From a virus (lineage: Duplodnaviria > Caudoviricetes): a DNA stretch of 64,000 nt. Under the pieces are notes generated by a model. It was not told the DNA's origin. It worked only from the letters and a program-made list of their open reading frames with translations, and ran no database searches. The stretch lies in the IMG/VR virus record IMGVR_UViG_3300031867_004305, positions 117,043 through 181,042 of that record. One strand, given 5' to 3'. Shown one piece after another: positions 10,965 to 35,197 of this stretch. Numbering within the stretch: position 1 is the first letter of the stretch; each line of letters opens with the position of its first letter. The position numbers and the translations under genes are program-made.

Positions 10965-12587
10965 ATGGGAGTACTAAATATTAAGTCTCAACAACTGCGG
11001 TCTTCCGTTTCACCTAAAACTTCAATTGCTCCAGCGATAATTAATCTAACTCCCGGTACAATTACTTATGATGGCACAGAGAAAACCCAGGGAGTAGATA
11101 ACATAATTTTTATGCTTACTGAAGGTACAGATTATATGCTTGCTGGTACAACCGCAATAAATGCAGGTACGCATACTATCACAGCAATAGGTACTAATAA
11201 TTACAAAGATACTGCTTCAATAGAATGGACTATACAAAAAGCAAATAGTTCTATTACACCAAGTGTCTCTTCCCTAAAAATCCAAGAGCCAGAAGATATT
11301 GGTACATTTACAATTATAACTACTGGTGATGGAACTATAAGTGTTTCAAGTAGTAACTCGGCAGTTGCTACAGCAACTCTAAATAATAATACTATAACCG
11401 TTACACCGATAGGAGAAGGAACTGCTACAATCATTGTTACTATTAGTGAAAGTAATAATTATAATGAAGCAAAAGCAAATGTAGAAGTAAATGTAGATTT
11501 TACAAAAGTATTTGGTGTAGTTTGGAATTATAATAGTTCTTCTCCTGTACTTACACGTCTTACACCAGCTAGTGATCCATTTGAATTTGTTAATACTATA
11601 GTTTTAGCTGATCCAATTCCAGCAATTGGAACAGGCCGTGGAAGCAGTCAGTTTGATAATTATATGCCATGGAAAGGAATGGAAGAATATAATGTAATAA
11701 ATAATGAAATTGTATATAAAAAAGGAGATAGCAATTTTAGTCGAGAAAATGATACTGTAATATATATACCAGAATTTTATTATAGAATAATATTAGATAG
11801 TGTAAATAGTAAACTCTATTTCTATATATCAAATCATCCATTTCAAGATTTCGAAAAGCATCCTGGCTCAGGAGCTTATATCGGAAAATATCACCTTGGT
11901 AGCGGATATGTCTGTAGAACAGGAATGGATCCACAAGTTAATATGACAAGAGCTACTGCTAGAACAAATATAACAAGTAATTTAGGTAGTAAGTGGTCTC
12001 AATGGGGCCTACATCATTGGAATGCTATCCAGTTACTATATATAATTGAATTTGCTCATTGGAATAGTCAATCTAAAATTGGCCTAGGACTTGTAAAGAA
12101 TAGTACACGTGAAAAAAGTGGAAAAACTGATACAATGACATATCATACTGGCATTGCTTCAGATTCTAATCTTTATGAGGCTGTTCAGTACAGAGGTATA
12201 GAGAACTTGTGGGGTAATGTAAACCAGTGGATTGATGGCGTAAATATGAATAGTAGTACAATTTACTGTTGTACTGATCCTTCTAAATATTATGATAGTA
12301 CAACTTCTAATTATATTAATTGTGGCTCTGTAACTACTAGTAGTGGTTATATTAGTAGTTTAAATATTAGCTCAAATGCAAATTGGGTAATATTACCTAA
12401 TGGTGCTAGCGGTACCAGTTCTACTTATATACCTGATTATTATGGATATTATAATAGTACTTGGTGGGTAATATTCGTAGGTGGTGGCCATGACTCAGAT
12501 AAACAAGCTGGTTTATTTTATACTTCAGGTGTTTATACATCCTATACAGGCTCATATATCACTTCCCGCCCAGTATTCATCCCCTAA
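10965..12587 (+). CDS. Ig-like + lectin-like receptor-binding protein (third paralogue)
   Basis: YRGIENLWGNVNQWIDG; terminal VGG...AGLFY...SRPVFIP. Confidence 0.65.
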   Translation: MGVLNIKSQQLRSSVSPKTSIAPAIINLTPGTITYDGTEKTQGVDNIIFMLTEGTDYMLAGTTAINAGTHTITAIGTNNYKDTASIEWTIQKANSSITPSVSSLKIQEPEDIGTFTIITTGDGTISVSSSNSAVATATLNNNTITVTPIGEGTATIIVTISESNNYNEAKANVEVNVDFTKVFGVVWNYNSSSPVLTRLTPASDPFEFVNTIVLADPIPAIGTGRGSSQFDNYMPWKGMEEYNVINNEIVYKKGDSNFSRENDTVIYIPEFYYRIILDSVNSKLYFYISNHPFQDFEKHPGSGAYIGKYHLGSGYVCRTGMDPQVNMTRATARTNITSNLGSKWSQWGLHHWNAIQLLYIIEFAHWNSQSKIGLGLVKNSTREKSGKTDTMTYHTGIASDSNLYEAVQYRGIENLWGNVNQWIDGVNMNSSTIYCCTDPSKYYDSTTSNYINCGSVTTSSGYISSLNISSNANWVILPNGASGTSSTYIPDYYGYYNSTWWVIFVGGGHDSDKQAGLFYTSGVYTSYTGSYITSRPVFIP

Positions 12588-12650
12588 TCCCAAAACAAAC
12601 AAACCCAAACCCATTCCCATTCTCACCACAATATATAAGGAGGAAACAAC

Positions 12651-25222: not shown

Positions 25223-26758
25223 ATGAATCGTCTTTACAATGCTATGGCTTCTCAGAACACCTACAAGACTACCGAGAATGGTGCTATCGCACGCACCACG
25301 ACCAGCTCTAAGCTATATGACCTCTTCTCTTTCGGCGCGGCTTACCGTCAGCGTACCGAGAGTGATTGCGTGCTACTATTTAAGGAGGCATATAAGGAAA
25401 GTCCTATGTATGCCCTAAAGTGCCTGTTCTATATCCGCGATATTCGCGGCGGACAGGGTGAGCGTCGTTTCTTCCGCACTTGCCTGCATTGGCTTGCGGA
25501 TTATGACCGCAATGCCGTACTACGCAATCTTGACCAGATTGCTGAGTATGGCCGCTGGGATGACCTATATGCCCTAGTGGGGACTTCTTGTGAACATGAT
25601 GCTCTTTATGCTCTTGGCAAGCAGCTTGCCCTTGATTACAAGACCAAGGGTGCTATTTCCCTTGCCGGTAAGTGGGCAGCTTCAGAGAACGCTTCTTCTG
25701 CCAAGACTAAGCGTTATGGTCGTCTAACTGCTCATACTATGGGTCTAACTTCTCGTCAATATCGCAAGGTGCTTTCTACCCTTCGTGAGCGTATTCGTGT
25801 TCTGGAGCGACTTATGTCCGCAAATCGTTGGAATGAGATTGAATTTGACAAGATTCCTTCTCGTGCTGGCCTAATCTACAAGAACGCTTTTGCACGCCGT
25901 GATATCATCAAGGCGAAGTATGAGTCTTTTGCAAAGGATAAGACTACCAAGGTTAACGCGGCAGCCCTCTATCCTTACGATGTCGTAGCTAAGGCAATTA
26001 AGCTGATGGGCTCTGACAGCTGGTATGGCCGTGGTAATCATGTTGCTCTTGACAATACCGATCGTCTAATGATTAACAAGTATTGGGAGAATCTTGTTGA
26101 TTATCTGACTGGTGCTCCACTAAATGCGGTGGTAGTGGCTGATACAAGCGGAAGTATGTGTTCAGGTGCTAATAGTGTGGCTCCAATTGATGTTGCTGTT
26201 TCTTTGGCTCTATACGCGGCCGAACGTATGCGTGGTCCTTTTGCCAATCATTATATTTCTTTTAGCCGTAAGGCTCGTTTAATCGAGACTACTGGCGTGG
26301 ATTTTTGTGATAAGGTAGATAGGATTGTAAGGACGAATCTATGTGAAAATACGAATTTAGCTTCCGTATTTGACCTTATCCTAAGTACTGCTTGTCACTA
26401 TAATCTATCTCAAAAGGATATGCCAGAAAGCATTATTATTGTAACAGATATGGAAGTAGATTCCGCACAGGGTTATTCTTCTTGGGGACGAGCACCTGAA
26501 TATGGACACGGCGGTAAGGGAATTCAAACCTTTATGGATAAGATGCGTAGTCGTTGGACTGACGCAGGATATAAAATGCCAAAAATTGTATTTTGGAACG
26601 TAAACGCACGAAATAATACAATTTTGGATGATGGCCCTGATGTTACTAATGTCAGCGGTTGCTCACCGGTTCTATTTGAATCTATCCTATCTGGAAAAAG
26701 TTCTTATGATCTTATGATGGATAAGCTAAATAGTAATCGTTATAAGCCAATTCATTAA
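25223..26758 (+). CDS. DUF2828-family TROVE/Ro60-like protein with C-terminal vWA domain
   Basis: TENGA, RDIRGGQGERRFF, EYGRWDDL, KW motifs; MIDAS DTSGSM; TDME; FWNVN. Confidence 0.82.
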   Translation: MNRLYNAMASQNTYKTTENGAIARTTTSSKLYDLFSFGAAYRQRTESDCVLLFKEAYKESPMYALKCLFYIRDIRGGQGERRFFRTCLHWLADYDRNAVLRNLDQIAEYGRWDDLYALVGTSCEHDALYALGKQLALDYKTKGAISLAGKWAASENASSAKTKRYGRLTAHTMGLTSRQYRKVLSTLRERIRVLERLMSANRWNEIEFDKIPSRAGLIYKNAFARRDIIKAKYESFAKDKTTKVNAAALYPYDVVAKAIKLMGSDSWYGRGNHVALDNTDRLMINKYWENLVDYLTGAPLNAVVVADTSGSMCSGANSVAPIDVAVSLALYAAERMRGPFANHYISFSRKARLIETTGVDFCDKVDRIVRTNLCENTNLASVFDLILSTACHYNLSQKDMPESIIIVTDMEVDSAQGYSSWGRAPEYGHGGKGIQTFMDKMRSRWTDAGYKMPKIVFWNVNARNNTILDDGPDVTNVSGCSPVLFESILSGKSSYDLMMDKLNSNRYKPIH

Positions 26759-28397: not shown

Positions 28398-29048
28398 ATG
28401 AGAAAGTATGAAAAGATTGATACTCTCTATCAAAGAGACACAACCGGAACTAAAAAGTTGCTTCCGGGAGTATTTCGTGATCCTACCGTAGAATATCTCA
28501 GCGACAATAATTGGATTTGGACTGAAAAGGTTGATGGCACTAATATCCGTGTATGTTGGGATGGCCATACTGTAACCTTTGGCGGCCGCACCGATAATGC
28601 TGCTATTCCCGCAGAACTTGTTACTCGTTTGAATGAGTTGTTCGGTGGAGAAACAAATGCTCAAATTTTTGAACAGGTTTTCGGCGATAAGGAAGTCATT
28701 CTTTTCGGTGAAGGCTATGGTCGCAAGATTCAAAAGGGCGGTGGAAAGTATATTCCCGACGGCGTAGATTTTATTCTTTTTGATGTGCTTATTGGCGACA
28801 ATTATCAAGAACGAGAATGGGTAGAAGAAACTGCCACAATGTTTGGAATTAAAGCTGTTCCTATTGTTGGCACTGGTAGTCTATATGCCGCAGGAGAGTA
28901 TGTAAAAACCCATCCTAATTCTGTAATTGCAGAAGAGCCGCGTGAAATGGAAGGAGTAGTATGTCGTCCTGCAATTGAACTACGCAATCGTCGCGGCGAG
29001 CGTATAATCGTAAAAATCAAATGGGAAGATATGAAGGAGCTAGTATAA
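28398..29048 (+). CDS. ATP-dependent RNA ligase (Rnl2-like nucleotidyltransferase core)
   Basis: Motif I EKVDGTN, III FGEGYG, IIIa FILFDV, IV EGVVCR, V IVKIK. Confidence 0.85.
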   Translation: MRKYEKIDTLYQRDTTGTKKLLPGVFRDPTVEYLSDNNWIWTEKVDGTNIRVCWDGHTVTFGGRTDNAAIPAELVTRLNELFGGETNAQIFEQVFGDKEVILFGEGYGRKIQKGGGKYIPDGVDFILFDVLIGDNYQEREWVEETATMFGIKAVPIVGTGSLYAAGEYVKTHPNSVIAEEPREMEGVVCRPAIELRNRRGERIIVKIKWEDMKELV

Positions 29049-29050
29049 TT

Positions 29051-29260
29051 ATGCTAATACGTTATGAAGTAGAGTTTTGGGATGAAATGGATCATCAAAT
29101 ACGAGCAGAGAAGGGTTTAACAGCAAGCGTCTCTACTCTAGGAGAAGGCGTAGATAAAATTGCTGAATATTATGGTAAAAGTAATATCAGTTTTATTAAA
29201 GTATATGAATGTGAAGATTGTATTTGTGATGAAGAACTAAAAGATTTACTAGAAGATTAG
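29051..29260 (+). CDS. Hypothetical protein
   Basis: ORF with RBS. Confidence 0.5.
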   Translation: MLIRYEVEFWDEMDHQIRAEKGLTASVSTLGEGVDKIAEYYGKSNISFIKVYECEDCICDEELKDLLED

Positions 29261-29263
29261 TAT

Positions 29264-29292
29264 TTGACTTTTATTAAAAATTCTGATATAAT
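29264..29292 (+). promoter_or_regulatory. sigmaA-type promoter for tRNA-Met and the large ncRNA
   Basis: TTGACT-17 bp-TATAAT. Confidence 0.85.
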
Positions 29293-29328
29293 TATTATAC
29301 AAGGTGAGGGAAAGAGCCCTCACAACGA

Positions 29329-29406
29329 TGCGGGATCGCCAAGTTGGTTAAGGCACGAGCCTCATAAACTCGTTACGCGTGGGTCCGAGTCCCACTCCCG
29401 CAACCA
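29329..29406 (+). tRNA. tRNA-Met(CAU)
   Basis: TGCGGGA/TCCCGCA acceptor; CTCATAA loop; ACCA. Confidence 0.85.
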
Positions 29407-29412
29407 CCAACG

Positions 29413-30144
29413 AACAGGCGTTGTAAAATATCCTGTGTCCGCAAGAGTGATTGATACTAGTCTAAGTGGTCTCAACGGCGGAATATAAATAGGCAAAACC
29501 AAATTAGTATTGTATTAAATGAGCGGTGTTTAATGGGAACTGGAAATTACACACGGAAGCCCTGAGCGGGAGTACTACCGCAAGTTCTGCTATATGGGAG
29601 CAGACGCTCATTTAAAGCAACCGGTTGATTTACGTAATTAAGTCGTTAGGAGCGACATGAGCAGCAATGCGGTAATACCGGTGCACCGGTAGCAAAGTTA
29701 CCCTGGCTCCCCAGATGGCGCACTGGGTTATCAAAGGGCCGCTTGGCACCCTATCCCGAGCGTCTTCGTCGCGGTGCTAGAAACTCGCCCCATTAGCTGA
29801 GGGTCGAGGCAAAGAGGGAACGTTGTTGGTGGTAACGGTGAAGATTCGCCCGGTATTCTAGGCTTGCCGTAAAAGTGGTGGGTATACACACCACAGTCTA
29901 AACCCCAGTATATGTTGCGAACGACCTGGGTAAACAAAGTCGTTAGTTGGCGTCTTATCCCAAGCCTTTACGCGGCGACGCTATAAGTACCAAGAAGCAT
30001 TTTTAATGCTGGGCGTGAAACAAAGAGGGAACTAGGAGGCTGTGACCAAGGGTGATGTGGTCTGACAGTCCGAGTAATGACCGTTGAAGTCATTCGGTCG
30101 GTAGCAGGGCTCGGCCGTTACAACAGTGGATGCATACGCTTGTT
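29413..30144 (+). ncRNA. Large structured ncRNA candidate (~730 nt)
   Basis: End-to-end pairing AACAGGCGT/ACGCTTGTT; many internal helices; no credible ORF. Confidence 0.65.
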
Positions 30145-30302
30145 AGCCCTTTTTATTGATTCGGGAGGAAGTGTCCGTAGATGAACTTCTCGGAGTAATC
30201 GCCAAAATCGAATCGTGGTATACCATTGTACGAAACTTCTGTCATCCTTAGTTTCTTGCAGTTTCAAGGATGAGGGTCGCGGCCACCAGAGCGCCGCAAT
30301 AT

Positions 30303-30373
30303 GCTGCGTTAGTCCAGTGGTAAGACACGAGGCTTTCAATCTCGGCAGAGGGGTTCAATTCCCCTACGCAGTA
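30303..30373 (+). tRNA. tRNA-Glu(UUC), CCA not encoded
   Basis: CGAGG-CTTTCAA-TCTCG. Confidence 0.85.
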
Positions 30374-30506
30374 CTCCTCCTTTTGGAGATATTTCCTAAC
30401 CTTACAAGAAAAAGTCAAGTTGAAAACTTGACTTTTTTCAATTTTATGTTATAATTATACATAAAGGTAGGCCCAGGCCTATTTAAATAAAGCGAGGTGT
30501 ATAATT

Positions 30507-31451
30507 ATGGCAGAAAATAAATTTACAGCCACAGATTTAAAAGAAATGCAAAACTGGTCGTTAGAGCATAAGATTGGAGTAACTCAAACGCGTATTTGCG
30601 AATTTGGATTACATTATGATAATCAAGTATTCGTAGCCTTTAGTGGCGGAAAAGATAGTACAGTATTATTAGATTTAGCTAGACGTTGTATTCCAGATGT
30701 ACCAGCAGTTTTTATTGATACTGGACTTGAATATCCAGAAGTAAAGCAATTCGTTAAATCTCATGAAAATGTAGAAATTATTCGGCCTAAAAAAACTTTT
30801 AGACAAGTTATTGAAGAATTTGGATACCCTATTGTAAGCAAGAAAATTGCCGGTTATGTAGCAACAGCAAAACGTAATCCAGATTCTGCTCGTGCAAAAT
30901 TCCTTAGTGGAGAGTATGATAGTAAAATTTTTGGGTTTGGAGATGGAAAATGGAATTTTCTTGTAGATGCTCCTTTTAAGGTAAGTGACTATTGTTGCGA
31001 TGTAATGAAAAAACAACCTAATCATCACTATTCAAAAGAAACGGGTCGTTATCCTATTTTAGGAACTTTAGCTTGTGAATCTATCGCTCGTCGTAATGAA
31101 TGGATGCGTAGCGGATGTAATTTATTTGATAGTAAGAAACCCACTTGTAAACCTTTATCTTTCTGGACTGATAATGACATTTTTGAATATATCAAACGCT
31201 TTGATGTACCTTATTGTTCTTTGTATGGAGATATCGTGAAAGATAAAAAGGGAAATTGGACTACTACAGGAATTAATAGAACAGGTTGTATTTTCTGTGG
31301 CTTCGGCTGTCATCGTGAGAAGTGCCCAAATAGATTCCAACAATTAAAAGAAACTCATCCAAAAATTTGGGAATACTGTATGCGACCTTGGGATGAAGGT
31401 GGACTTGGATTGCGTGAAGTTTTAGAATATATAAATGTACCAGTTGAATAA
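30507..31451 (+). CDS. PAPS-reductase-family (PP-loop) protein
   Basis: FSGGKDSTVL; DTGLEYPE; CC..MKK; RTGCIFC. Confidence 0.85.
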   Translation: MAENKFTATDLKEMQNWSLEHKIGVTQTRICEFGLHYDNQVFVAFSGGKDSTVLLDLARRCIPDVPAVFIDTGLEYPEVKQFVKSHENVEIIRPKKTFRQVIEEFGYPIVSKKIAGYVATAKRNPDSARAKFLSGEYDSKIFGFGDGKWNFLVDAPFKVSDYCCDVMKKQPNHHYSKETGRYPILGTLACESIARRNEWMRSGCNLFDSKKPTCKPLSFWTDNDIFEYIKRFDVPYCSLYGDIVKDKKGNWTTTGINRTGCIFCGFGCHREKCPNRFQQLKETHPKIWEYCMRPWDEGGLGLREVLEYINVPVE

Positions 31452-32217: not shown

Positions 32218-32544
32218 AAATTGTGATATAATATTTATAGAAACAAGGAAAGGATGATAATTGTGCGTAAGACTTCTCGTACTGTGTTTTCTTCTTCTTG
32301 GACTCGCCGCGAGCAGGCTGAAAAGCTTGATGAGTGGCAGAATTAGCCGGTATAAGCAGACAAATTGCGGCCAATAGAATGCCGGTACCGTAAATGTTCT
32401 TCTAACGCCTCTCGAAGAAGCGCACCACTAGAAGACTTATTACCTAGGTAGTTGCGGCGAACAACGATAAAAATCGCTAGTTGCCCAGATACTTACTTGA
32501 AGGGTTTCTGCCGCGTTAATCTTGGTATCGGATTGCGGTTGTAT

Positions 32545-32679
32545 CCACGCGTGGTGCAAATGGCGAGACACAGCGGACTTACGTAGGCCCAGTGGCTTGT
32601 TGGAGAGCAACACTCCTTCCTACGACCAAAATCCGCGACGCAAGATACATTGCTGGTTCAAATCCAGTCGCGTGGACCA
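32545..32679 (+). tRNA. tRNA-Leu(UAA) interrupted in the anticodon by a 47-nt tRNA-minihelix-like insert (32582-32628)
   Basis: CCACGCG/CGCGTGG-ACCA; GCGGA-CTTA[insert]AAA-TCCGC; long variable region; T arm intact. Confidence 0.8.
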
Positions 32680-32682
32680 TAT

Positions 32683-32759
32683 GTTCCATTACCCCAATTG
32701 GTAGAGGGAATCGGCTCAAACCCGATGTAGTTTCAGTTCGAATCTGAAATGGAACACCA
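32683..32759 (+). tRNA. tRNA-Leu(CAA), short variable loop
   Basis: ATCGG-CTCAAAC-CCGAT; ACCA. Confidence 0.88.
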
Positions 32760-34603: not shown

Positions 34604-35197
34604 GTAGATACCCTATTTAATAAAATGGTTGAACCAAGTGAAGAAGAGCTAACCACTCTGCTTGGACTATCCGAAAAACAGCCCCAAACTTGATGGGATA
34701 CTTTCAAGCCAAGGCCGCGAAATCAGTAATGATTAGCGATATGGAGAAACTCCTAATGTTAAGGGTAGGTGCTTGGTTATCCGCTAACAAAAACTTGGCT
34801 CCTCGCGGCGTCGTAATAGAAGGTGGGCGTTAAAAGCGTGACCTGAATCCAAGTTAGGCGTAGGATGGCTGCCACCGCAAACCTTGGAAATGCCAACAAG
34901 ACGCTTGGTGTCGTTGAAACCTAGAAATAGGATATAAGCGAGGTTCACAGAAAAAGTAGCCCAAAACGACAATGATTCTAATAGATATTTGTAAATATTA
35001 CTTGGAATTATTGTGCTGAACGGTTCGGGTGAAATTTGAGAGTAAGCAATCTCTCCGTTGCTCACCGAAAGGTAGGGTGAAGAAGTCCGGAATTGCTACC
35101 CGTGGCTCAGCCTTCATCTTCAACGTGGTTGAATATGTTAGAAGGATAATACAAGTACGACGAAGGTCGCAACGGTTTTATTAAATAGGGTATTTGC
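34604..35197 (+). ncRNA. Large ncRNA, ROOL-like (~590 nt)
   Basis: Long closing helix ATACCCTATTTAATAAAA/TTTTATTAAATAGGGTAT; size and tRNA-cluster context fit ROOL; family assignment is recollection, not a search. Confidence 0.6.

Follow-up and report, generated by a model that had tools for sequence, protein, structure and literature searches.

A modular structured RNA in a phage tRNA island, with a new tandem repeat unit and hairpin loops predicted to kiss

Large structured orphan RNAs are rare, and GOLLD and ROOL, which belong to phage tRNA islands, form RNA-only cages. The dimerisation initiation site of human immunodeficiency virus 1 (HIV-1) is a symmetric kissing-loop hairpin with a self-complementary core of six nucleotides (nt) flanked by purines. 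Here we describe a GC-rich element (29413-30144, plus strand) in a tRNA island of a virus of the Caudoviricetes, IMG/VR record IMGVR_UViG_3300031867_004305. The window, by which we mean the whole 64,000-nt stretch of DNA that was analysed, is the final 64 kb of this complete 181-kb phage record, and the phage is of a rumen type. An earlier note had read the element as a single, highly paired RNA of about 730 nt whose two ends pair to close the fold, GOLLD-like in size and context and possibly of a new class. We find that a unit of about 200-250 nt, duplicated in tandem into two diverged copies, makes up the GC-rich core, and that the RNA consists of domains that are each closed locally and follow one another collinearly: a leader hairpin, A, X, B, C, unit 1, unit 2, F and G.

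By cryogenic electron microscopy (cryo-EM), a loop palindrome of GOLLD that switches to other palindromes is a symmetric intermolecular kissing loop, and the phage-borne, pseudoknot-rich ROOL assembles by kissing loops (10.1101/2024.12.08.627333). The RNA described here resembles GOLLD in its setting, as both occur in phage tRNA islands and the GOLLD env-38 example lies downstream of tRNA-Met just as the present RNA does. The two are also comparable in size, in having a conserved 3' and a variable 5' part and in the behaviour of a palindrome, which is a shared habit and not proof of homology. Unlike GOLLD, the present RNA has no match to the covariance model and consists of a tandem unit of about 200-250 nt together with small locally closed modules; and while GOLLD is a closed 14-mer nanocage, the present RNA is a putative oligomer in which no long-range helix is conserved. 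ROOL shares both the genome and the tRNA island with the present RNA, but the ROOL model misses the present RNA, and a hidden Markov model (HMM) of the repeat unit misses ROOL, finding in the 181-kb genome just two copies, 29703-29905 and 29904-30151. The RNA is one of the large structured RNAs found in phage tRNA islands, none of whose families includes it, and its tandem, modular build is new.

The element lies in a gap of 896 nt without open reading frames (ORFs), 29407-30302, bounded by tRNA-Met and tRNA-Glu. The GC content of the gap is 0.45-0.55, as against about 0.30-0.35 in its surroundings, or roughly 50% compared with 33%, and its longest frames (74 amino acids in a frame that crosses a tRNA, 68 amino acids in one on the minus strand) are not credible. 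The earlier note was right that the region is GC-rich, that it has no credible ORF and that it follows tRNA-Met, which ends at 29406. The element would be the body of an RNA of about 896 nt with the limits 29407-30302, wider than those first proposed. A homologue search seeded by two flanking proteins returned 47 related viral loci, and 11 distinct contigs have the same gap between tRNA-Met and tRNA-Glu, with a length of 806-1595 nt.

The motifs CCCAG...CUGGGU.A.CAAAG...UAUCCC...AAGAGGGAAC are present twice in the RNA of the window, at a spacing of 211 nt, and the local alignment of unit 1 with unit 2 scores 72, compared with 26 +/- 4.5 in shuffles (maximum 41). Related gaps each hold one or two copies of the unit (nhmmer). 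The 5' part of the unit is made up of a pseudoknot-like P1/P2 element with a conserved strand, UUAUCAAAG, a P3/P4 stem around UUAUCCC and a variable hairpin, P5. Its 3' part consists of the invariant strand AAGAGGGAAC, P6, P7 and a pseudoknot-like Px/P8 module that presents hairpin P9. The units abut, with the final helix of unit 1 ending three bases before P1 of unit 2. The two copies are laid out as follows, all on the plus strand.

29710-29903, plus strand: repeat unit 1, short type (nhmmer 149 bits)
Unit 1, 5' helices and conserved strand: P1 29710-14/29723-27; P2 29717-19/29738-40; P3 29745-50/29773-78; P4 29760-62/29770-72; AAGAGGGAAC 29812-21
Unit 1, 3' helices: Px 29852-55/29865-68; P8 29859-64/29895-29900; P9 29875-80/29889-94; loop G-GUAUAC-A 29881-88
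29904-30150, plus strand: repeat unit 2, long type, part of the constant core of the locus (nhmmer 211 bits)
Unit 2, 5' helices and conserved strand: P1 29904-08/29926-30; P2 29920-25/29939-44; P3 29949-54/29977-82; P4 29964-66/29974-76; AAGAGGGAAC 30023-32
Unit 2, middle helices: P6 30038-43/30065-71; P7 30076-81/30089-94; Px 30096-30100/30112-16
Unit 2, 3' helices: P8 30106-11/30145-50; P9 30122-28/30137-44; loop G-AUGCAU-A 30129-36

The region had been called highly paired, but by minimum free energy (MFE) it is no better than shuffled sequence (z-score 0.04 on the plus strand, -0.69 on the minus strand). Since these z-scores are uninformative, the structural case was made from covariation among homologues. 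In a 31-copy alignment of the 5' half, every cell of P3 (6 bp) and P4 (3 bp) is paired (100%), with many double changes. Over this half 99.1% of cells are paired, slid registers give 27-51%, and the covariation score is 0.276 compared with 0.143 when shuffled, a value reached in 0 of 500 shuffles. In a 30-copy alignment of the 3' half (P7, Px, P8 and P9), 88.3% of cells are paired, compared with 71.1% when shuffled and 31-46% in slid registers; there are 129 double-change cells against 49.5, and the covariation score is 0.527 against 0.249 (again 0/500). The unpaired cells of the 3' half come mostly from one subtype with a bulged P9, which is out of register in the MAFFT alignment. For helices of variable length we used a strand-swap test, in which the 5'-strand segment of each copy was folded with its own or with a foreign 3'-strand segment. 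The cognate strand was favoured for P2 (-8.67 vs -5.60 kcal/mol), P8 (-7.51 vs -3.71) and P9 (-5.59 vs -2.63), and also for P3, P4, P6, P7 and Px, while three control segment pairs were flat. RNAalifold on the raw MAFFT alignments recovered only the best-aligned unit stems.

The order of the strands makes P1/P2 and Px/P8 H-type pseudoknots, and covariation backs P2, Px and P8. G-U pairs that never vary (31/31 at the base of P3, for instance) fix the strand as plus. Long strands of the unit, AAGAGGGAAC, UAUCC and GCCGUUA, are invariant and unpaired. The call of a structured RNA made in the earlier note is upheld by these covarying homologues, and it is very probable that the non-coding RNA is real, structured and under selection and that its core represents a new repeat-unit family. 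Two departures from the usual unit were seen among the relatives. At L057:5716-5763, and also in L104 and L068, a module with P1 and P2 only (CCGAG...CUCGG, AACGC/GCGUU) stands alone just 5' of tRNA-Thr; it holds the sole clear compensatory change in P1, and the 5' pseudoknot domain can evidently occur alone. A loose scan for more P1/P2 modules returned mostly background and added nothing. Four unit copies (L034:7868-7966, L088, L099 and L082) have a variant 3' domain, in which a long stem, AAGGUUGU/ACAACCUU, with a U run after it, is terminator-like and encloses a hairpin presenting the palindrome UCUAGA, which is a hairpin different from P9.

The loop of P9 is 8 nt long and reads purine-N6-purine. 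Its N6 is palindromic in 30/30 aligned copies (AUGCAU in 22, GUAUAC in 7 and GUGCAC in 1), and its stem has at least 14 different sequence pairs. When all loci were searched with a pattern for the hairpin frame, the loop was palindromic at 33/33 unit sites and at 0 of about 55 background sites. The first copy carries GUAUAC and the second AUGCAU or GUGCAC in 10/10 unique two-copy arrays. The outer bases of N6 could pair within the molecule and so close the loop. The two bases at the centre of N6 (GC in two variants, AU in another) are neighbours and unable to pair with each other in one strand, and so the switch is not explained by intramolecular pairing. AUGCAU has no second copy in the RNA that could serve as a pairing partner. 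Every change of N6 leads from one self-complementary core to another, adjacent central bases included, which is the pattern expected in sequence of a kissing loop. Kretsch et al. made the palindrome argument for OLE L9.3 and GOLLD L21a, and the contacts were confirmed by cryo-EM (10.1101/2024.12.08.627333 = PMC12286853). Like P9, OLE L9.3 has a 6-nt self-complementary, purine-flanked loop core that varies and yet stays self-complementary. P9 differs from OLE L9.3 and from the HIV-1 site in its 8-nt loop and in the presence of two orthogonal loops in one RNA, and its dimerisation is a prediction only.

Given the behaviour of the palindrome and the precedents of OLE and GOLLD, we propose symmetric kissing between like P9 loops of different molecules. 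Each P9 loop would contact the same loop of another molecule, and the two units, with different palindromes that do not cross-react, would provide two orthogonal self-contacts per RNA. Dimers or higher homo-oligomers of the RNA, of the kind demonstrated for OLE, ROOL and GOLLD, would be the result. Self-association through P9 kissing loops is plausible, and we put it a little short of an even chance. A possible role for such an assembly, and the guess that we prefer, could be to scaffold or sequester RNA-handling factors or tRNAs during infection.

No known family accounts for the RNA. The window was compared by cmscan with all 4227 families of Rfam 15 at the gathering score, and the gap was rescanned at E<=10 with lax filters. 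At the gathering score no family was matched in the gap besides the flanking tRNAs, and at E<=10 there were only chance-level matches to unrelated snoRNA and microRNA models in 29407-30302. Models of self-cleaving ribozymes, group I and group II introns, OLE, RNase P, tmRNA, 6S RNA, Y RNAs and drum (RF02958, gathering score 43 bits) gave no match in the gap at this threshold, and neither did ROOL (RF03087, gathering score 99.1 bits) in 29250-30450. The best match of the GOLLD model (RF02032) in the whole genome is 5.9 bits, outside the gap and against a cut-off of 150 bits, and GOLLD was not found at the gathering score in 13 homologous loci. The resemblance to GOLLD that had been suggested thus holds for the tRNA-island setting and does not extend to a match with the family, and the suggestion of a new class survives for the repeat unit and the architecture of the locus but not for a 730-nt fold. 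ARAGORN and Rfam call no tRNA or tRNA-like sequence within 29407-30302; module X is a four-way junction and yet is unrecognised as tRNA. No similar DNA was found in GenBank phages by blastn of the gap or by tblastn of a 690-amino-acid neighbour. We found no description of this RNA in the literature, although fragments of it could be among the 8,495 unnamed candidates of an IMG/VR-wide survey of structured RNAs (PMC10690425).

The units are accompanied by further modules, most of them upstream of unit 1.

29408-29423, plus strand: leader hairpin CAACG/CGUUG, which holds the strand taken in the earlier note for the 5' end of the fold; this strand is kept in only two relatives
29446-29522, plus strand: module A, about 75 nt, outer stem GAUACUA/UAGUAUU, conserved in most relatives
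29515-29615, plus strand: module X, optional, a four-way junction with an 11-bp closing stem, TTAAATGAGCG/CGCTCATTTAA
29618-29656, plus strand: module B, a conserved segment with the palindromes CAACCGGUUG (29618-29627) and UUACGUAA (29630-29637), 13 unique copies
29659-29709, plus strand: module C, optional, a long hairpin (GAGCAG...CUGGCUC; GGUAA/UUACC; apex ACCG-GUGCAC-CGGU)
30157-30215, plus strand: module F, about 59 nt, very strongly conserved, closing stem GAUUCGG/UCGAAUC, after the last unit in nearly all relatives
30216-30225, plus strand: linker palindrome UGGUAUACCA between F and G
30228-30302, plus strand: module G, optional, two conserved hairpins directly 5' of tRNA-Glu

RNAalifold missed the outer stem of module A through a register shift of one column, so the strand-swap test was used instead, in which the cognate strand gave -6.88 and the non-cognate strand -3.74 kcal/mol with a flat control. 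Module X, found in 4 unique contigs, has 27 pairs over 4 homologues, with two compensatory pairs in its closing stem (RNAalifold). The palindromes of module B vary among copies to CAACGCGUUG and UUGCGCAA; this switching is suggestive, and the second palindrome fits an intramolecular hairpin equally well. Module C is known from 14 unique copies with a compensatory change from G-C to U-A in the apical stem. Module F, confined to 17 viral contigs that are all of the same phage group, has 19 unique copies and 17 predicted pairs, with exchanges between UA and CG and between CG and UA in its inner stem, in 4 sequences each. Module G has 19 pairs over 9 homologues and one compensatory pair (C-G to A-U). 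Pairing of the GUAUAC loop of unit 1 with the UGGUAUACCA linker was considered and rejected, since the linker and unit 1 do not co-occur.

The order of the modules is constant over about 25 contigs: tRNA-Met, (A), (X), (B), (C), (unit 1), unit 2, (insert), F, (G), tRNA-Glu, where parentheses mark optional parts. The constant core is the 3' part, unit 2 and F, and A, X, B, C and unit 1 are optional. Similarity of the related gaps to that of the window is patchy, with blocks of 40-250 nt in varying combinations, although the flanking proteins are 85-95% identical. The exception to the order is L057/L104, in which a unit pair and the module with P1 and P2 only lie between tRNA-Ile and tRNA-Thr without the other modules. 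After HMM filtering of the related contigs there were 40 unique unit copies, and two more were found in a 7-kb contig binned with a metagenome-assembled genome of the Acutalibacteraceae. Scans of sequence collections with anchor patterns gave 31 viral, 31 metagenome and 5 genome stretches; false positives in coding sequence (the 23-41 kb contigs, L058, L064, L070 and L071) were dropped, as were 7 further metagenome loci and 4/5 genome loci. The optional insert between unit 2 and F, of about 145-175 nt, was seen at L002:5559-5703, L007:4334-4478 and L039:3039-3212 and is missing from the window; it starts AAUGACUUG...CUAGAACUAUCGAGGACG and is a further conserved module that is unclassified.

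Although the RNA of the window is not matched by drum, relatives have drum in this very slot of the locus. It was found in the gap of two of them (L040, 68.8 bits; L041, 66.9 bits). In L040 the drum match ends exactly at the start of P3 of the unit, and in L065/L101 and L074/L097 the 3' half of drum is fused to a full unit core, so that in all of these loci drum replaces the P1/P2 domain of the unit. In L041, drum is followed by module F with no unit. We considered whether the unit could be a general 3' extension or hidden part of drum and rejected this, as bacterial drum loci end in terminators. In the original description of 2017, bacterial drum is followed by a terminator (PMC5737381). The five drum loci found in 150 genomes of the class Clostridia have a terminator directly after drum, and the unit HMM finds nothing there. 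Drum and the unit are interchangeable or combinable modules in this phage locus. Stand-alone drum RNAs also occur upstream of tRNA-Leu in relatives (L035:7054-7150, L048:10228-10324, L036:10972-11068, L038:9934-10030 and L032:12008-12103), where they are followed by conserved GC-rich sequence and no terminator. At the equivalent place the window has a GC-rich, ORF-free stretch at about 32250-32700 with no drum match.

All genes of the window are on the plus strand, and 19 tRNA genes form an island around the RNA (ARAGORN). The features that frame the locus are listed below.

25223-26758, plus strand: gene for a DUF2828/DUF7788 Ro60-like protein, 2.6 kb upstream of the locus
28398-29048, plus strand: RNA ligase gene (PF09414), directly upstream of the tRNA-Met/RNA locus
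29264-29292, plus strand: sigma-70-type promoter-like site, predicted transcript start (TTGACT, 17 nt, TATAAT, with TG preceding the -10 element; 11/12 matches)
29329-29406, plus strand: tRNA-Met (CAU), called by ARAGORN; Rfam tRNA 52.2 bits
30303-30374, plus strand: tRNA-Glu (UUC), called by ARAGORN and by the Rfam tRNA model
30408-30438, plus strand: intrinsic-terminator-like hairpin with a 14-pair stem and a T run, predicted end of the transcription unit
30507-31451, plus strand: gene for a PAPS-reductase/PP-loop enzyme, downstream of the locus
34610-35188, plus strand: true ROOL RNA (RF03087, 307.6 bits), 4.5 kb downstream in the same tRNA island
17440, 20905, 34123, 37068, 38260, 38378, 38981 and 40246, plus strand: CAGCAA elements

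In nearly all homologous contigs tRNA-Met precedes the locus and tRNA-Glu follows it. Besides the window, 3 homologous loci have a site resembling the 29264 promoter at 60-65 nt upstream of tRNA-Met, and all of 11 homologous gaps were free of internal promoter-like sites. Between the 29264 promoter and the 30408 terminator we found no plus-strand promoter or terminator signal of comparable quality. It is therefore probable that tRNA-Met, the RNA and tRNA-Glu are co-transcribed from one promoter as a single primary transcript, in which 3' processing of tRNA-Met would set the 5' end of the RNA and the RNase P cut at the 5' end of tRNA-Glu would set its 3' end. The next promoter-like site, 30428-30455, overlaps the terminator, whose 3' arm includes the TTGACT of that site; the compact junction of stop and start (30408-30455) shares the TTGACT...TATAAT design with the 29264 site. 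ROOL RNA is present in the relatives L034 and L008 too. Rfam tRNA matches of 117-150 nt in relatives (L036:8535-8651, L039:3363-3479, L034:10167-10297, L032:1290-1440 and 12476-12606, L040:11232-11354) represent tRNA genes with long insertions, which may be introns or split tRNAs. The tRNA at L032:1325-1401 has the anticodon CUA ('Pyl' according to ARAGORN), so that it may be an amber suppressor and hints at recoding of stop codons in the phage group; none of the window's 19 tRNAs has this anticodon.

About eight stem-closed CAGCAA elements are present in the window, and their closing stems covary between copies. Their common frame opens with UAG and a stem of 5-7 bp whose sequence varies, continues with N2-3, CAGCAAY and an insert that varies as well, and closes with the 3' strand of the stem and UAGA. 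They are candidate Y-RNA-like partners of the DUF2828 protein. They share the island with the present RNA, and module C has a CAGCAA hexamer beside the 5' strand of its closing stem. However, module C reads GAG-CAGCAA ... CUGGCUC-CCCAGA, with its CAG paired, and so departs from the frame; its first 20 nt are unique in the window, and the repeat units are without such a handle. Module C may also have some likeness to the 530-loop sequence of 16S rRNA, on which none of the readings given here depends. The hexamer of module C weakly backs the idea of a small-RNA operon serving RNA-handling proteins.

We give an even chance to what seems the best overall explanation, a modular RNA of about 896 nt that is built on the new repeat unit and whose P9 loops kiss; taken by itself, the existence of one functional molecule of about 0.9 kb is somewhat likelier than its absence. 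It is possible, though clearly less probable, that the locus is an operon of independent small structured RNAs, with the transcript cut into domains (A, X, C, the units, F and G) that act separately; the Ro60-like protein, the RNA ligase and the PP-loop enzyme could have them as Y-RNA-like partners or as substrates. Every domain has its own closing helix, no long-range helix is conserved, and the domains come and go one by one among phages whose flanking proteins are 85-95% identical. Partial units consisting of the pseudoknot only exist, drum, which is stand-alone elsewhere, fits the same slot, and the neighbouring RNA ligase and Ro60-like genes and the CAGCAA elements of the island count in favour of this reading too. 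Separate RNAs are harder to reconcile with the strict order of modules, with units that abut without a spacer and with the failure to find an internal promoter, terminator or known self-cleaving ribozyme in the locus, and the Rfam Y-RNA models do not match, nor does module C have the CAGCAA frame. A functionless structured spacer, made of decayed tRNA or small-RNA genes or serving as a scaffold that aids maturation of the flanking tRNAs, would suit a position between two tRNAs of one operon, a mosaic and variable make-up and a narrow distribution. It is nevertheless improbable, as dozens of compensatory changes preserve the helices, the long unpaired strands are invariant, the loop palindrome is kept at every unit site and nothing tRNA-like is matched inside the gap, all of which are signs that the RNA itself is under selection.

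A very divergent member of GOLLD or ROOL, beyond the reach of the Rfam models, is very improbable. It would explain the position in a tRNA island directly after tRNA-Met, the length of about 0.9 kb, the conserved 3' and variable 5' parts and the covarying palindromic loop. Against it are the lack of a match in the gap at E<=10 and, at the gathering score, in 13 homologous loci, the best GOLLD score lying far below the cut-off and elsewhere in the genome, and the strength with which the same ROOL model recognises the true ROOL RNA 4.5 kb away; internal tandem repeats are not a described feature of either family. Scarcely credible is the model of the earlier note, a single giant RNA of about 730 nt closed by pairing of its ends, and we reject it. 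Its strands are all in the window (AACAGGCGT at 29413 with ACGCTTGTT at 30136, and TTGTAA at 29421 with TTACAA at 30118), and the global MFE fold has a AACAGGCGU/ACGCUUGUU helix. The two strands occur independently in homologues, however: L048, L033, L036 and L035 have the 3' strand only, and L037 and L038 have the 5' strand only, with a different P9 and no matching 3' strand. ACGCTTGTT (30136-30144) is the final loop base and the 3' strand of P9 in unit 2, a covarying local hairpin, and the proposed 3' end would leave out the conserved modules F and G. Of the six helices quoted in that note, the two long-range end helices are thus unsupported, whereas the four local ones are real and show compensatory changes in homologues: TTAAATGAGCG at 29515 with CGCTCATTTAA at 29605 is the closing stem of module X, GTGGTG at 29875 with CACCAC at 29889 is P9 of unit 1, AATGAC at 30076 with GTCATT at 30089 is P7 of unit 2, and AACGAC at 29920 with GTCGTT at 29939 is P2 of unit 2. 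What had been taken for one closed fold is a tandem duplication within a mosaic of local domains.

Several observations weigh against a single modular RNA with kissing P9 loops. The limits of the transcript, and one RNA instead of several, are what we infer from the signals around the locus. Domains are singly lost, duplicated or swapped among relatives, and the unit pair of L057, between other tRNAs and without A, B, C, F and G, fits independent small RNAs equally well. The unit family is limited to one uncultured phage clade, and the unit copies come from related sequences, so that the significance obtained with the shuffle controls is too high. P1 (CCCAG/CUGGG) and a possible UCCC/GGGA contact are near-invariant, which is compatible with pairing but leaves it unproven, and one P1 pair is mismatched in 5 copies; the MFE values given above add no support for structure. 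With regard to kissing, there are only three or four palindrome variants, which follow the unit subtypes and may represent two to three independent switches. The palindromes of module B are also compatible with a local hairpin, and the RNA as a whole shows no enrichment of palindromes (p=0.43 for those of at least 8 nt, p=0.05 for those of at least 10 nt).

A bolder possibility, which we hold only tentatively, is that GOLLD and ROOL are joined by a third type of self-assembling RNA in phages, the modular RNA with kissing P9 loops, in which each repeatable pseudoknotted unit carries a kissing-loop 'address'. If so, tandem units with orthogonal addresses would give several independent self-contacts, enough for dimers, chains or cages, and one tRNA island would supply the phage with two different RNA assemblies, the present RNA and ROOL. 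Drum would serve this system as a head domain that can be exchanged, which would be its first functional context. The significance of the RNA is limited by its narrow distribution in one uncultured phage clade. Even so, the repeat unit is a small building block of about 250 nt that is suited to biochemistry and cryo-EM, the swap with drum ties a widespread orphan RNA to this system, and the neighbouring RNA ligase and Ro60-like protein are concrete candidate partners. That ROOL shares its niche and its genome with another, unrelated RNA whose loop switches only from palindrome to palindrome suggests that these phages may rely on RNA self-assembly as a general strategy.

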